DNA from: Octopus vulgaris
Taxonomy: Eukaryota
Assembly: GCA_951406725.2 (NCBI GenBank)
Contig: OX597822.1
Span: 87,854,001 to 87,918,000, forward strand
DNA: 64,000 bases
Direction: 5' to 3'
The position numbers and the translations under genes are program-made. Numbering within the stretch: position 1 is the first letter of the stretch; every line of letters starts with the position of its first letter. Under the pieces are notes generated by a model. The model was not told the origin of the DNA, did no database searches, and worked only from the letters and a program-made list of their open reading frames with translations. Positions 10,093-63,505 of the stretch are shown here, one piece after another.

Positions 10093-10870
10093 GCGAGCTG
10101 GCAGAAACGTTAGCACGCCGGGCGAAATGCTTAGCGGTATTTCGTCTGTCGTTACGTTCTGAGTTCGAATTCCGCCGAGGTCGACTTTGCCTTTCATCCT
10201 TTCGGGGTCGATAAATTAAGTACCAGTTACGCTCTGGGATCGATGTAATCGACTTAATACTTATGTCTGCCCTTGTTTGTCCCCTCTGTGTTTAGCCCAT
10301 TGTGGGTTATAAAGAAATAGGTATTTAGTCTGTCGTTACGTTCTGATTTCAAATTCCGCCTAGGTCGACTTTGCCTTTCATCCTTTCGGGGTCGATAAAT
10401 TAAGTATCAGTTACGCACTGGGGTCGATATAATCGACTTAATCCCTTTGTCTGTCCTTTGTTGTCCTCTCTGTGTTTAGCCCCTTACGGGTAATAAAGAA
10501 ATAGGTATTTCGTCTGCCGTTACGTTCTGAGTTCGAATTCCGCCGAGGTCGACTATGCCTTTCCTCTTTTCGGGGTCGATAAATTAAGAACCAGTTACAC
10601 ACTGGGATCGATGTAATCGACTTAATCCGTTTTTCTGTTCCTGTTTGTCCCTTCTATGTTTAGCTCCTTGTGGGTTATAAAGGAATAGGTATTTCGTCTG
10701 TCGTTACGTTCTGAGTTCAAATTCCGCCGAGGTCAACTTTGCCTTTCAGCTTTTCGGGTTCGATAAATAAAGTACTAGTTTCGCACTGGGGTCGATGTAA
10801 TCGACTTAATCCCTTTGTCTGTCCTTGATTGGCCCTCTATGTTTAGCCCCTCGTGGGTAATAAAGAAATA
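10093..10870 (+). mobile_element. Nin/Deu-domain tRNA SINE (Octopus OK-like) with its body tandemly repeated four times
   Basis: One head (GCGAGCTGGCAGAAACGTTAGC) is followed by units starting at ~10138, 10322, 10506 and 10690 (period 184). Each unit contains a B-box (GTTCRAATTCC) and the Nin-like GCCTTTCATCCTTTCGGGGTCGATAAA. Confidence 0.8.
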
Positions 10871-16481: not shown

Positions 16482-16946
16482 GAATAAAATAACAAGGTAA
16501 AAGTTTTTATTTTTCATTCCTTTTAAAAATTGCTCTTAAATGTGGTTTTGGTCGTTTTAACTACTTTTTCTAGCTGGTAAAACTGCCTGTTGAAGGCTGT
16601 TTCTCTTGTGTTTAAATGTACACAATGAGAATATATTGTCTATTCACTTTATATACATGCTAGGCCACTGGTAGTGAAATTTCTAAAAAGAAACTCGCTA
16701 CGCTATATTTTCCGTGTGCATATATATATTCATGTATGTTATTTTGTAATAATTACTGGTATCCTTATATATTAATATATTTAATATCTTATATGTAAAG
16801 CATAATATGTTATACATGTATGTATATTATTGTAATTGTCAGTTTAGTAAATAAATAAATAAGTTAACATAATATAATGTCTAAAAGTTGATGAACCACC
16901 TATCGATCCCCTCCATTTTCTTATTGCTATATATATATATATATAT

Positions 16947-18096
16947 TGTTACGGTTGGCTAAGTGCATTTCGGGTTTAATTAGTGTAGTGTTTCTGGTGA
17001 CCCACATCGTGGATATGGTTCCAGTATGTCTGGTGAAAATGTGACAGTCTTTTGTCTAATGGAGGACTAATGGGTTTTGGAATGACCTGTGACCTCGTGC
17101 GGTTGAGAAGAGGGTCAGGAGAATGTGAAAGAAAAGGGACAGATTAAGGGCTGAGAGCAAATAGAGATAGAGTATAAGCAGTAAGGGACGGATGGAGAGG
17201 CTAAGAGTCTGGCAGGCGATAGCGATAGAGTAAGAGCAGAGGGCAAATAGAAAGGATAAGCAGTAAGGGACAGATAGAGAGGCTAAGGGATTGAGGCGAT
17301 ATAGATAGAGTAAGGAATCAGAGAGCAGTTAGAAAGGGTAGGAGCGATATAGACAGAGGGAGATGAGGGAGTGGAAGTCAGGACAAGGAAGTGAGGTTCT
17401 GGGCAGTCGTTGAGCGGTCGTCGAGGAACACGGACGGACTCTGGAGGTCAGAGCGAGTGGATGGAACCTTGGATTTAAGGAACAAGCGTTGGAATTCTTA
17501 GGAGCAAGTTGGATGCGAGAAAGCTTGGCGGCACAGAAGGGAATTAGCAGTATTCAGAGGAATTAGCAGTATTGAGAGGAATGGGACACTGGCAGATTCA
17601 ATTAGGAACTGAGGTATGTGATTTGTGTATTGAACAGTCAAGGACTCTGTCGATGTGGTCGATAAAGGACATTGTGAAGAAGAAGAGTAAAGGACTTGTT
17701 ATTTGTGATGTTTAGAAAAAGAGACTTTAGAGAACTGTGTCTTCGGACGTGTACCTTTGAAATACTGTATATGACTTGTTGCGTCTCCGGACTGATATAT
17801 TGTTACATGATGTTGTATTATGTATTGAGTAGTCACGTGCATGCTTTGATGTATCTTGATGTGTAACATTGTAATTGCCGTATAAACTGTTGTTTGAATA
17901 TAAGCCAGTGTTGCCAGTTGTTGCCTTGCCTCTTTGGGTTGTATCTCGGGTTGTGCCTCTGTATCTCTGTGCTGTTGAGGTTGTGGCAGTATCTATCTGT
18001 ATCTCCTCTCTCCGCCTCTTTGGGTTCCGTGGCGGAACTAGTGTGCGAGCCGTTCGGGACGAGCGACGACGGGCGATTCCAGTCCGTTCCGTAACA
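16947..18096 (+). repeat. 5' LTR (1150 bp)
   Basis: TG...CA ends with an 8-bp terminal inverted repeat. By eye it matches 20092-21242 apart from one T indel near 17862. Confidence 0.95.
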
Positions 18097-18098
18097 AC

Positions 18099-18116
18099 TG
18101 GTGTCAGAAGTGGGAT
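18099..18116 (+). other. Primer-binding site complementary to the tRNA-Leu(CAA) 3' end
   Basis: TGGTGTCAGAAGTGGGAT begins 2 nt after the 5' LTR. Confidence 0.9.
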
Positions 18117-18154
18117 TGTCCTGATTGCTGCGTTTCGATCGGTTCTTTTTCGCT

Positions 18155-20080
18155 ATGGATTTGTCTGGCTGTCAGACCGGAGACGAGGGGATTTCGCTTG
18201 CCCTGATTGTGGAGATGTTAGGGGGCCAGATCGCGCAGACGGACGCGTTCGTGGAAAGAATGGACAAGAGGCGACGGGGCCTGTGGGCAGATCAGCAGGA
18301 GCTTGAGGTTGCGGATGGGTCAGCTTTGGAGGATCGGTGTTGGACCGAGGATAGCGACGGTCCTGTGGGCAGAGATTGCCCGTCGAACGAAGCATCGAGG
18401 GAAACAGATAGTGAAGGAAGTGTTGCCGAAATCTGTGATGCTGGACCGGCTGTGTTTGCGGAACCTGGGCTGGTTGCCGAAATTTGTGACGCTGTACCCA
18501 AGAAATCTTGTGATTTGGAACCCGTAGAGGTTGAAGTAACCAAAAGGCCTGTGGAAGGTGTTATGGCTGATGCTGTTGTTCCGTGTCTGGAGCCCTTGGC
18601 ATCTCGACCCCTGTCTCTCGGAGCTCAGGACGAAGAGCTGGCGAGGTCTGGGGCGAATGTCGCTGAGTCCGAGGTTCCGGCTCTGTGTGTGATGGTCGCG
18701 GCAGGTGCTATGCCGTGTGCGGGTCCTTTGGTGTCTGGACCCCTGTCTCTTGGGGCCCAGAGGGACTGTATGGTTCCCACTGTGGAGAGGCCACAGGCGT
18801 GGATGGACTGGCGGCCGGGCGTGTGTGTTGTGAGGCCTGCGGTACGGAAGCTGGTGAGGAAAAGGACCAGGCCCGTTGACGAGGCGAGACGGCTGCGAAC
18901 GGTGGTGGGTCCACCGAGACCAGGAGGACTGCTTCAGCGTTGGGTGAGCTTTGTGGTTGATGGTTGCTTGGGGCCGGTGGAGCCCGACAGGCAGTGCCTA
19001 GTGAAAGCTCGATTGAGGGTCGGGTGGACCCTAGTGGAAGCAGAAGCTGGTGGAGCGCTAGCTGGGTCGGCCGATCTTTTGGAAGTGGCACAGGCGATTT
19101 GCAGAAGGCAAATCGAGGAATCGTGCCAGATGGCGAACCAGTGGTGGGGCCAGCTCTGCCGATACGGCAACGCAGTTGAAGGAGGTGGTGGCCCACGGAT
19201 GCAGTTGAGGAAGCGGTCCGCAAGGAGTCGCTGGTGCTTTGTTGGCACTTGGGGGAGCTCTGTATTTGATGGTTGCGTGGGGCCGGTGGAGCCCGACATG
19301 CAGTGCGGAATAGGAACTCAATTGAGGGTCGGCTGGACCCTGGTGGAGGCAGAGTCTGACAGAGCGCTGGTTGGGTCGGCCGAGTTATTGAAGGCTGCGC
19401 AGGCGATTTGCAGAGGGCAAATCGTGGAACTGCGCCGGACGGTAAACCAGCGGCGGGGTCAGTTCTGCCGGTGCAGAGATGAAGTTAAGGGAGTTCGTGG
19501 TCCGCTGATGCAGTTGCGGAAGAGGCAACTGTTGGTGAAGAGCGCAGGACGTTGGTCGCGAGGGTTGTTGGATGCTGGTCGCACGGACCTGGCAGAACGT
19601 TTCGTCGACCAGGGCGGTTGTCGCTTGAGGAGGCGGCGAGGCCGGAGGAAGGTCTCAGTACAGCAGCGCAAGAGGAGATATCGGCGACGGGGAACTGTGG
19701 AAAAGCGGAATGGTCCCTGGTCGTCGGCGATAATTGCGCGGAATGGAGATGGTACAGCAAGATGCTACGTGGGCTATAGAGCCCTGAGGAAGGTGGCCAC
19801 TGTGAAGGATTGGCCGGACCCTTCCTGTGTGAGGGATTTGAGGAACTTCTTCGGACGGTGCGCCTATTGTGGACGGCTAGTAGGAAGCCTGGCGGCGTTG
19901 GCGGAGGTGTTACCCAAGCCGCAGAGGGAAGGTGCCAACCTGTGGCTGGTGCTGAAGTGGTGGCCGTGGGAGGTGAGACCCCCGGAGGAGAAACCACCCA
20001 AGGGGACCCCCAGCCCCTGGAGAGTCTGCTGCTCGGAGGTGCGAGTTTTGTTATGCTTTGTCGGGTCGACAAAAGCTTAG
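18155..20080 (+). CDS. 641-aa ORF of highly diverged gag/pol remnants with no RT catalytic core, RNase H or integrase
   Basis: Open from 18125 (first ATG 18155) to TAG 20080. It contains two copies of a 103-codon gag-like unit. GRTDLAERFVDQG...GTVEKRNGPWSSAIIARNGDGTARCYVGYRAL (RT N-terminus-like) is fused to KVATVKDWPDPSCVRDLRNFFGRCAYCGRLV (RT thumb/connection-like). Confidence 0.75.
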   Translation: MDLSGCQTGDEGISLALIVEMLGGQIAQTDAFVERMDKRRRGLWADQQELEVADGSALEDRCWTEDSDGPVGRDCPSNEASRETDSEGSVAEICDAGPAVFAEPGLVAEICDAVPKKSCDLEPVEVEVTKRPVEGVMADAVVPCLEPLASRPLSLGAQDEELARSGANVAESEVPALCVMVAAGAMPCAGPLVSGPLSLGAQRDCMVPTVERPQAWMDWRPGVCVVRPAVRKLVRKRTRPVDEARRLRTVVGPPRPGGLLQRWVSFVVDGCLGPVEPDRQCLVKARLRVGWTLVEAEAGGALAGSADLLEVAQAICRRQIEESCQMANQWWGQLCRYGNAVEGGGGPRMQLRKRSARSRWCFVGTWGSSVFDGCVGPVEPDMQCGIGTQLRVGWTLVEAESDRALVGSAELLKAAQAICRGQIVELRRTVNQRRGQFCRCRDEVKGVRGPLMQLRKRQLLVKSAGRWSRGLLDAGRTDLAERFVDQGGCRLRRRRGRRKVSVQQRKRRYRRRGTVEKRNGPWSSAIIARNGDGTARCYVGYRALRKVATVKDWPDPSCVRDLRNFFGRCAYCGRLVGSLAALAEVLPKPQREGANLWLVLKWWPWEVRPPEEKPPKGTPSPWRVCCSEVRVLLCFVGSTKA

Positions 20081-20091
20081 GTAGGGGGTAG
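20079..20091 (+). other. Polypurine tract
   Basis: AGGTAGGGGGTAG directly abuts the 3' LTR. Confidence 0.85.
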
Positions 20092-21238
20092 TGTTACGGT
20101 TGGCTAAGTGCATTTCGGGTTTAATTAGTGTAGTGTTTCTGGTGACCCACATCGTGGATATGGTTCCAGTATGTCTGGTGAAAATGTGACAGTCTTTTGT
20201 CTAATGGAGGACTAATGGGTTTTGGAATGACCTGTGACCTCGTGCGGTTGAGAAGAGGGTCAGGAGAATGTGAAAGAAAAGGGACAGATTAAGGGCTGAG
20301 AGCAAATAGAGATAGAGTATAAGCAGTAAGGGACGGATGGAGAGGCTAAGAGTCTGGCAGGCGATAGCGATAGAGTAAGAGCAGAGGGCAAATAGAAAGG
20401 ATAAGCAGTAAGGGACAGATAGAGAGGCTAAGGGATTGAGGCGATATAGATAGAGTAAGGAATCAGAGAGCAGTTAGAAAGGGTAGGAGCGATATAGACA
20501 GAGGGAGATGAGGGAGTGGAAGTCAGGACAAGGAAGTGAGGTTCTGGGCAGTCGTTGAGCGGTCGTCGAGGAACACGGACGGACTCTGGAGGTCAGAGCG
20601 AGTGGATGGAACCTTGGATTTAAGGAACAAGCGTTGGAATTCTTAGGAGCAAGTTGGATGCGAGAAAGCTTGGCGGCACAGAAGGGAATTAGCAGTATTC
20701 AGAGGAATTAGCAGTATTGAGAGGAATGGGACACTGGCAGATTCAATTAGGAACTGAGGTATGTGATTTGTGTATTGAACAGTCAAGGACTCTGTCGATG
20801 TGGTCGATAAAGGACATTGTGAAGAAGAAGAGTAAAGGACTTGTTATTTGTGATGTTTAGAAAAAGAGACTTTAGAGAACTGTGTCTTCGGACGTGTACC
20901 TTTGAAATACTGTATATGACTTGTTGCGTCTCCGGACTGATATATTGTTACATGATGTTGTATTATGTATTGAGTAGTCACGTGCATGCTTTGATGTATC
21001 TTGATGTTGTAACATTGTAATTGCCGTATAAACTGTTGTTTGAATATAAGCCAGTGTTGCCAGTTGTTGCCTTGCCTCTTTGGGTTGTATCTCGGGTTGT
21101 GCCTCTGTATCTCTGTGCTGTTGAGGTTGTGGCAGTATCTATCTGTATCTCCTCTCTCCGCCTCTTTGGGTTCCGTGGCGGAACTAGTGTGCGAGCCGTT
21201 CGGGACGAGCGACGACGGGCGATTCCAGTCCGTTCCGT

Positions 21239-21242
<4 letters not shown>
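20092..21242 (+). repeat. 3' LTR (1151 bp)
   Basis: Direct repeat of 16947-18096. Confidence 0.95.
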
Positions 21243-21280
<38 letters not shown>

Positions 21281-21366
21281 ATATATTCATGTATGTCTGT
21301 AAGTATATGTGTGTATGAGTGTGTATGTATATATGTGTGTGTGTGTGTGTATGTGTGTGTATACAC

Positions 21367-23966: not shown

Positions 23967-24383
23967 TTATTTCTTTATTGCCCACTAGGGGCTAAACACA
24001 GAAGGGACAAACAAGGACAGACAAAAGGATTAAGTCGATTAGATGATCCCCAGTGTGTAACTGGTACTTAATTTATCAACCCTGAAAGGATGAAAGGCAA
24101 AGTCGACCTCGGCGGAATTCGAACTCAGAACGTAACGGCAGACGAAATACCTATTTCTTTATTACCCGTAAGGGGCTAAACACAGAGGGGACAAACAAGG
24201 ACAGACAAACGGATGAAGTCGATTATATCGACCCCAGTGCGTAACTGGTACTTAATTTATCGACCCCGAAAGGATGAAAGGCAAAGTGGACCTCGGCGGA
24301 ATTTGAACTCAGAACGTAACGGCAGACGAAATACGGCTACGCATTTCGCCCGGCGTGCTAACGTTTCTGCCAGCTCGCCGCCT
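23967..24383 (-). mobile_element. Nin-domain SINE with tandem second body
   Basis: Reverse complement of the 10093 family. Confidence 0.8.
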
Positions 24384-53510: not shown

Positions 53511-54169
53511 CGTGGCACTCCATCGGTTACGATAATGAGGGTTCCAGTTGATCCAATCAACGGAACAGCCTGCTCGTGAAATTAACGTGCAAGTGGCTGA
53601 GCACTCCACAGACACGTATATCCTTAACGTAGTTCTCGGGAGATACAGCGCGACGCTGAGTGTGACAAGGCTGGCCATTTGAAATACAGGTACAACAGAA
53701 ATAGAAAGAAAGAGTGAGAGAAAGTTGTGGTGAAATATTACAGCAGGGTTCGCCACCACACCCTGTGGGAGCCTCGTAGAGCGTTAAACGTTTTCGCTCA
53801 ATAAACACTCACAACACCCGGTCAGGGAATCGAAACCGCAATCCTACGACCGCGAGTGAGAGAAAGTTGTGGTGAAATATTACAGCAGGGTTCGCCACCA
53901 CACCCTGTGGGAGCCTCGTAGAGCTTTAAATGTTTTCGCTCAATAAACACTCACAACACCCGGTCAGGGAATCGAAACCGCGATCCTACGACCGCGAGTG
54001 AAAGAAAGTTGTGGTGAAATATTACAGCAGGGTTCGTCACCACACCCTGTGGGAGCCTCGTAGAGCTTTAAATGTTTTCGCCCTATAAACACTCACAACG
54101 CTCGGTCAGGGAATCGAAACCGCGATCCTACGACCGCGAGTCCGCTGCCCTAACCACTGGGCCATTGCG

Positions 54170-58846: not shown

Positions 58847-58949
58847 TTCCCCCCTCTCCAAATAACAACACGGAGTCAGATCTTTACATTCAGCCACCAT
58901 AGAACTCACAAACCTAACGCAGAAAATACATGATTATCTCAACTACAAA

Positions 58950-59100
58950 ACCCTAACTCTAACTCTTAAGCCTAACCTCTAATCCTAAACCCTAACCCTA
59001 ACCCTAATCCTAACCCTAAATCCTAACCTCAACCCGAACCCTAAACCCAAACCTAGCCCTAACTTTAAACCCTAAATCCTAAACTTAACTTTAACCCTAG
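58950..59100 (-). repeat. Degenerate interstitial telomere-like (CCCTAA)n
   Basis: About 25 imperfect CCCTAA units. Confidence 0.8.
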
Positions 59101-63348: not shown

Positions 63349-63505
63349 TAAAACCTTAACCCTAAAACCCTAGGGTTAGGGTTTTAGGGTTAGGTTTAGG
63401 GTTTTAGGGTTAGGGTGTTAGGGTTAGGGTTTTAGGGTTAGAGTTAGGGTTTTAGGGTTAGGGTTAGAGTTTTAGGACTTGGGTTTTAGGGTTTTAGGGT
63501 TAGGG
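63349..63505 (+). repeat. Telomere-like (TTAGGG/TTTTAGGG)n with a short inverted CCCTAA segment
   Basis: AAAACCTTAACCCTAAAACCC-TAGGGTTAGGGTTTTAGGG... Confidence 0.85.

Follow-up and report, generated by a model that had tools for sequence, protein, structure and literature searches.

Evidence for selection on the reading frame of a young non-autonomous Ty3/Gypsy retrotransposon family in Octopus vulgaris

The window analyzed here, 64,000 nt of Octopus vulgaris DNA (assembly GCA_951406725.2, contig OX597822.1, positions 87,854,001 to 87,918,000), contains a repeat-bearing locus that is a young, freshly inserted, non-autonomous Ty3/Gypsy LTR retrotransposon of 4296 nt (~4.3 kb). It belongs to a new family, and it is unusually clear that the reading frame, more than the repeats within it, is under selection. 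The repeats are near-neutral in-frame spacer expansions, and amino-acid constraint over the open reading frame (ORF) as a whole is loose. The usual view of non-autonomous LTR elements is of passengers that code for nothing, with any coding remnants left as debris. The octopus family forms a graded natural series, leading from gag-pol elements through stepwise in-frame deletions to an ORF without domains, and its copies are numerous enough for selection on the frame to be told apart from selection on residues.

Paired LTRs with TG...CA ends, a tRNA primer-binding site (PBS) and a polypurine tract are all present, and a single ORF lies between them. The features are as follows, in window positions, with Gag and Pol numbered as in L069, an autonomous-type relative:

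16947..21242, + strand: the whole element
16947..18096, + strand: 5' LTR, TG...CA, within a (TA)n tract
18099..18116, + strand: primer-binding site, complementary to the 3' end of an intron-containing tRNA with anticodon CAA (Leu)
18155..20080, + strand: the only ORF of the element, 641 codons from ATG, filling the interior
18173..18319, + strand: Gag N-terminal remnant (Gag 20-70, 41%)
18338..18382, + strand: second zinc knuckle, decayed (CWTEDSDGPVGRDCP), two of four ligands lost (E = 0.007, two-sequence search)
18422..18447 and 18473..18498, + strand: 51-nt-period repeat (VAEICDA twice), 88% over 26 nt
18574..18628 and 18706..18760, + strand: 132-nt-period repeat (PLSLGAQ twice), 75% over 55 nt
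18940..19216 (unit 1) and 19249..19525 (unit 2), + strand: 309-nt repeat, 78% over 277 nt
19622..19690, + strand: arginine-rich tract where L069 Pol is acidic-leaning; 18 R+K in residues 481-520
19715..19915, + strand: reverse transcriptase (RT) remnant, RT start joined in frame to the thumb region (Pol 395 to 543)
20079..20091, + strand: polypurine tract, overlapping the ORF stop
20092..21242, + strand: 3' LTR, paired with the 5' LTR and followed by (AT)n

The two LTRs differ by no substitution and by one 1-nt indel, so the window copy is very young. Including the part before the ATG, the frame is open from 18125 to 20080 and encloses all three repeats; the longest + strand frame in 2000 Markov resamples of the region had a median of 118 and a maximum of 247 codons. 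The primer tRNA was assigned from an Rfam tRNA in three of four pattern loci, with the anticodon read by eye from L090, while ARAGORN made no call at its defaults and returned a wrong anticodon at relaxed settings. Clusters of the tRNA 3'-end pattern occur at G000:C29 8819758-8829116 and C4 81207468-81210198, some of them with a spacing of 542 nt or ~110 nt. Repeats of 4 bp consistent with target-site duplication flank L037, L055 and L057, and the window copy, lying in (TA)n, is uninformative in this respect. The family and L069 occupy AT-rich 4-bp sites (ATAT, ATAC, GTAT), often in (TA)n, a pattern that the abundance of (TA)n in the genome may inflate; nine of the 15 right flanks found for L021-L060 were (AT)n-like (window flanks, 16928-16946 and 21243-21286). 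Elsewhere the window carries tandem arrays of a 184-nt unit (10136-10870 and 23968-24334, four and two copies) and of a 142-nt unit (53712-54141, three copies), together with degenerate interstitial (TTAGGG)n-like tracts in opposite orientations (58949-59099 and 63371-63505).

Dozens of relatives are found in the Octopus genome, many of them young and dispersed, although the family lacks full coding capacity. A protein search of the genome itself (2.8 Gb) gave at least 81 matches from 68 of the 756 candidates scored. At most of the 60 loci examined the interior spans 1.9-2.0 kb and contains two 309-nt units, whereas at about ten it spans 1.6-1.8 kb and contains one; LTR-only loci are also present, and the copies are recombinant mosaics. 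The frame is open over >93% of the interior in 26 of 59 copies, and the LTR pairs of open copies are less diverged than those of non-open copies (median 0.39%, n = 22, versus 1.21%, n = 20; p = 0.005, with L011 scored as non-open though open). L011 and L012 (G000:C1, 3240 nt apart) form a tandem pair with matching interiors and one LTR common to both. The same 33-nt in-frame insertion at window position 19525 in L044, a young copy, and L027, from a distant subfamily, is a sign of recombination between subfamilies. Eight loci from an LTR-PBS junction search for a helper were examined (six with LTR sequence only, one LTR-PBS junction without an internal match and one truncated family copy); no intact helper was found by this search or among the four related gag-pol elements examined. 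L069 itself has an in-frame stop in its integrase and therefore marks the lineage rather than a working helper, and capsid-bearing copies are few and diverged.

That the frame itself is under selection in replicating lineages is highly probable. We aligned 54 of the 60 loci (five partial copies and one tandem twin set aside), counted on 52 of them (two near-identical copies removed) and took alleles found in at least two copies as change in replicating lineages; the loci were picked by similarity to the window, partly by protein search, which biases them toward open frames. Only four of 637 shared alleles were stops, against 26.9 expected (p = 4e-8; 52 copies). The other two + frames had 26 versus 33.4 and 20 versus 27.0 and thus also fell under expectation, so the null is about a quarter high, which is far below the deficit in the true frame. 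Three of the four shared stops have just two carriers each, distant from one another on the tree, and the fourth is at 20027. Singleton stops were also short (14 versus 30.1 expected), a shortfall that the many singletons on long lineage branches probably explain. Pairwise comparison gave the same picture: the window and open copy L035 differ by 284 substitutions, for which 9.0 stops are expected and none of 4000 simulations was stop-free, with 7.6 stops expected against L021 (0/4000 stop-free) and 4.2 against L042 (p = 0.01). Open copies as much as ~20% apart in aligned bases contain no stop.

Length changes tell a similar story. Shared net indels in 18155-19960 are in frame in 17 of 18 cases versus 8 of 37 in a control of 600 nt of LTR from 25 copies, which is repeat-rich and less surely aligned (events within 15 nt merged); merging within 40 nt gave 11 of 11 versus 7 of 22, and within the same 25 copies the ORF gave 5/5 in frame. 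Shared frameshifts cluster only from 19966 onward, and near 18508-18522 a locally shifted, compensated stretch is common to 8-10 copies. The reverse frames, which include long minus-strand ORFs, show no constraint except for the one that shares third positions (0.83). The deficit of stops and frameshifts, taken with the younger age of open copies, therefore indicates that replicating lineages preserve the frame and that decay sets in once a copy has inserted.

Sequence comparison shows the ORF to be an in-frame mosaic of gag and pol remnants, derived by in-frame deletions from a gag-pol element like L069. L069, found in a search with the C-terminal part of the ORF, is a Gypsy element that has its PBS and ends in common with the window element; its gag frame has 429 codons and CCHC knuckles, and its pol frame encodes protease, RT, RNase H and integrase (Pfam order PR-RT-RH-IN). 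Segments of the window ORF match L069 Pol at 42-56%, and the matches follow the order Gag 20-70, second zinc knuckle, Gag 112-132, Pol 158-288, Pol 193-395 and Pol 543-583. The knuckle is better kept in L083, L074 and L088. The 132-nt repeat (18574..18760) resembles Gag 112-132, just before the lost capsid, in a weak match (E = 0.04), and the 309-nt units correspond to Pol 158-288 and 193-395, unit 1 coming from the protease-RT linker (Pol 158-288, 48%). Within the RT remnant, ~147 codons including YLDD are gone. The ORF has nothing that corresponds to the L069 capsid, protease, RT core with YLDD, RNase H or integrase core; a Pfam search found no family in it at E ≤ 1, and it has no significant match to Gag 133-334, where the capsid lies.

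L021, L027 and L035 have additional short same-frame matches to Pol 759-817 and the last Pol residues, of which the shortest are weak (E 0.0007-0.05, two-sequence searches), and these copies carry every piece inherited from the parent, from the start of Gag through the final residues of Pol, in a single frame. The older relatives L073-L083 form a deletion series with a common RT-core junction and more RNase H or integrase kept; in L076 and L078 a single frame runs through the pieces as far as the last one, while frameshifts interrupt others. L079 lacks the RT core and has an integrase part 86-92% identical to L069 behind a front at 44-71%, which points to recombination with the autonomous lineage. 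The closest relatives of the Gag part are CCHC/Gag proteins of Octopus and crustaceans.

Only the Gag N-terminus (omega 0.5-0.7, mild) and the RT remnant (0.3-0.5, strongest) show amino-acid constraint. A codon model run on 26 open copies gave omega = 0.79 for the whole ORF (p = 4e-4) and 0.89 (p = 0.16) for the 22 youngest open copies; by segment, values were 0.59 at the N-terminus, 1.26 in the linker, 1.23 after the units and 0.30 in the RT remnant (LRT 38.9), with 1.18 and 0.95 in shifted-frame controls. Such tree-based values may be biased because the copies are recombinant mosaics. Shared alleles gave 0.67 at the N-terminus (p = 0.057), 0.91 in the middle 460 codons (p = 0.19) and 0.43 in the RT remnant (p = 7e-4; window-scan permutation p = 0.02). 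Pairwise omega against 15 deeper relatives, which all share the window branch and are not independent, was 0.40-0.63 throughout in the RT remnant, ~1 in the middle and about 0.5 at the N-terminus (range 0.40-1.04 where fully aligned). The recombination in L079 offers a possible route by which synonymous changes could be imported from an autonomous RT, but this is an unlikely source of the low value in the remnant because the copies keep residues unlike those of L069 and the changes are scattered, not in helper-like blocks.

Synonymous changes within conserved blocks of the three repeats had been taken, in the initial annotation of this DNA, as the mark of purifying selection on the protein after the duplications. 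The underlying observations are sound: periods of 51, 132 and 309 nt are present in frame within one ORF, this in-frame spacing is not chance, and the quoted codons are correct, with two synonymous changes in VAEICDA, three in PLSLGAQ (18608 and 18740) and four, without replacements, in LRVGWTLVEAE (19013 and 19322). Selection on the ORF also stands, although it falls mostly on the frame and on two segments outside the repeats. For the whole 309-nt pair of the window, however, dN/dS was 0.51 (Nei-Gojobori, 92 codons, pN = 0.189, pS = 0.323) and not significantly below 1, the outcome that the annotation had itself named as counting against it. Codon positions 1/2/3 carry 22/18/21 differences, and transitions make up 42 of the total of 61; the ratio is no different in the +1 frame (0.197/0.370), and permuting with substitution types held yields p = 0.22 and 0.18. 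The full 132-nt unit, with 61 of 129 nt different, has a dN/dS of 1.11, and the cores of the 51- and 132-nt repeats give p = 0.25-0.38. The quoted blocks are the best-kept stretches, and over their full length the repeats show no departure from a null that takes transitions into account.

Only the 309-nt repeat is similar along its whole period; the 51- and 132-nt repeats are alike in their cores only, and the 51-nt spacing is part of an unstable in-frame tract with gains and losses of 9-54 nt among copies. Across many copies, constraint on the repeat units is at most weak, and mixed: codon-model omega was 1.13 in the 51/132 region, 0.85 in unit 1, 0.62 in unit 2 and 0.70 in both units (p = 0.012), shared alleles gave 0.77 and 0.84, neither significant, and deep pairs were mostly at 0.7-1.3. 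In a tree of the units, the single-unit copies L030, L031 and L038 fall with unit 1, whereas L033-L037 and L088 fall with unit 2; L040 combines both as a chimera, and unit 2 is absent or chimeric in single-unit subfamilies. Because each unit groups with different single-unit lineages, their divergence may predate the tandem arrangement, and the 309-nt tandem may go back to a single origin or to out-of-register recombination between diverged single-unit lineages. With omega near 1 in the middle and units spread over different lineages, the repeats are therefore best seen as spacer, tolerated when in frame.

As to what the frame is kept for, we give an even chance to a Gag-Pol fusion product that would act in cis, bringing its own RNA into helper particles. 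Gag and Pol would be supplied in trans by a helper element, the RNA would be translated and the product would be required in cis, for if it could work in trans, lineages with frameshifts could have spread too, and we observed no such lineage. Docking on helper Gag would fall to the N-terminal Gag helix, and holding the element RNA to the basic tract and RT remnant; a stop before the end of the remnant would then be costly, whereas the middle would be free in length and sequence. Constraint at both ends and tolerance just past the RT remnant would then arise because the fusion product acts on its own RNA. A more elaborate form of the proposal, that a new cis adaptor was made from wreckage (Gag helix, free-length spacer, newly basic tract and two-piece RT finger-thumb remnant), is unlikely; if true, the RNA would be tethered to the helper's particle, with capsid and nucleocapsid functions both replaced. 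Single-sequence fold prediction of the ORF (mean pLDDT 35.2) gave no support for a structured protein. Other points that weigh against the cis reading are the loose constraint over the whole ORF, the decay of the zinc knuckle, the compensated stretch near 18508-18522, the shortfall of singleton stops and the failure to find an intact helper among the elements examined. Assembled contigs of four runs, whose RNA status is a guess, covered 28-30 of 30 bins and do not show transcription because the coverage includes the flank.

A serious possibility, if short of probable, is that translation as such is selected, with ribosomes running to near the 3' LTR and so averting nonsense-mediated decay or carrying the RNA to assembly, and the encoded sequence serving as filler. 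Stops and frameshifts are indeed purged far harder than replacements (4 stops where 27 are expected; omega ~0.8), the middle 460 codons do not depart from neutrality in shared alleles and, in all 26 open copies, the frame ends ≤74 nt from the 3' LTR or runs past it. Coronavirus defective RNAs are reported to behave alike, by the titles cited in PMC8255065, and excerpts of PMC3945221 suggest that Ty1 RNA stability needs some translation. What translation as such does not predict is the low omega of the RT remnant (0.3-0.5) and N-terminus (0.5-0.7), nor a tolerance of frameshifts that starts just past the RT remnant. The initial annotation's wider view, in which purifying selection acts throughout the protein and the duplicated blocks are functional, draws on the value of 0.70 for both units, on a four-sequence test (0.57, p = 0.026) and on unit 1 standing at 0.31-0.60 in three deep pairs (L021, L027 and L030). 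We nevertheless consider it very improbable, given the non-significant whole-unit test, the omega of 1.13 in the 51/132 region, the shared-allele value for the units (0.84, p = 0.18) and the spread of both single-unit and two-unit forms.

It is very unlikely that the frame is a neutral relic, open only because the copies are young and their source happened to be open: the window copy is of very recent origin, 33 of 59 copies have no full open frame and the choice of loci favors open ones, but open copies ~20% apart carry no stop, and several large deletion junctions are all in frame while the LTR control is not. Just as unlikely is an ORF kept by the host through domestication, or acting in trans as, for example, a restriction factor. 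One public Octopus gene model does begin with ~148 residues of the ORF followed by unrelated domains, but frames break after insertion, constraint lies in shared and not in private variants, and no other homolog was found among the 7997 candidates scored (lengths 358-1140 only), where this chimeric model was the one match. The model, P0002, corresponds to window 18260-18703 and continues into unrelated RING- and death-domain sequence; it breaks at an AG/GT junction near 18703 and reflects either an annotation artefact or exonisation. A long open frame with synonymous-looking blocks may, in an animal genome, be transposon filler, and such transposon frames enter public gene models.

A search of open-access literature, in which PMC10924933 was among the papers found, showed no description of the octopus family. 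The element is not an autonomous Ty3/Gypsy element, as capsid, protease, RT with YxDD, RNase H and integrase core are missing. L069 shares its PBS, LTR ends, pre-polypurine-tract sequence (91% over 67 nt) and (TA)n site and is the source type of every recognizable ORF segment, but it is ~6.7 kb long, has overlapping gag and pol frames and is alike in the LTR bodies in short patches only. Excerpts of PMC13570524 describe plant non-autonomous LTR families with coding remnants, under the terms TRIM, LARD and TR-GAG, that resemble the octopus family in their intact LTRs, PBS, PPT, recent insertions, solo LTRs, tandem copies, recombination and RT remnants; in those excerpts the remnants are treated as traces of history, without mention of selection on the frame, whereas the octopus interior is one selected open frame. 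TR-GAG does not fit because the Gag ORF is not retained and the capsid is deleted, and TRIM does not because 4296 nt is too long against an upper size of under 1-1.5 kb. The size of a LARD (over 4 kb) would fit, but LARD interiors are non-coding and the octopus interior is a selected open frame.

Coronavirus defective-interfering RNAs reportedly need a long open frame, a finding said to go back to de Groot 1992 and van der Most 1995. They are likewise helper-dependent mosaic genomes in which, by titles, nonsense and frameshift changes are disfavored, but they are RNA virus replicons whose encoded sequence is by title dispensable, whereas the octopus ORF has two constrained segments. In the excerpts of PMC3945221, Ty1 RNA is delivered co-translationally and Ty1 proteins show no cis-preference, which by analogy would count against the reading in which the protein acts in cis.

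IAP 1-delta-1 of the mouse is the closest described case, and the octopus element would work like it without being a member. The primary paper on it is said to be Saito et al. 2008. According to excerpts of PMC6466679 and PMC7411935, IAP 1-delta-1 is non-autonomous and its gag-pol fusion protein acts in cis. Both are non-autonomous LTR elements in which internal deletion left a single in-frame gag-pol fusion ORF, both would need Gag and Pol in trans (for the octopus element, by our inference) and both outnumber the helper among young copies. By the same excerpts, IAP 1-delta-1 is an endogenous retrovirus with one 1.9-kb deletion and its cis action is experimental, whereas the octopus element is an invertebrate Ty3/Gypsy element that has duplications as well as about seven junctions, lacks the capsid and diverges by ~20% between open copies, and its case for cis action is evolutionary, in the deficit of stops and frameshifts. 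The octopus family would thereby extend the cis-translation effect of IAP 1-delta-1 to an invertebrate Gypsy lineage, and whether protein or translation is what counts becomes testable.
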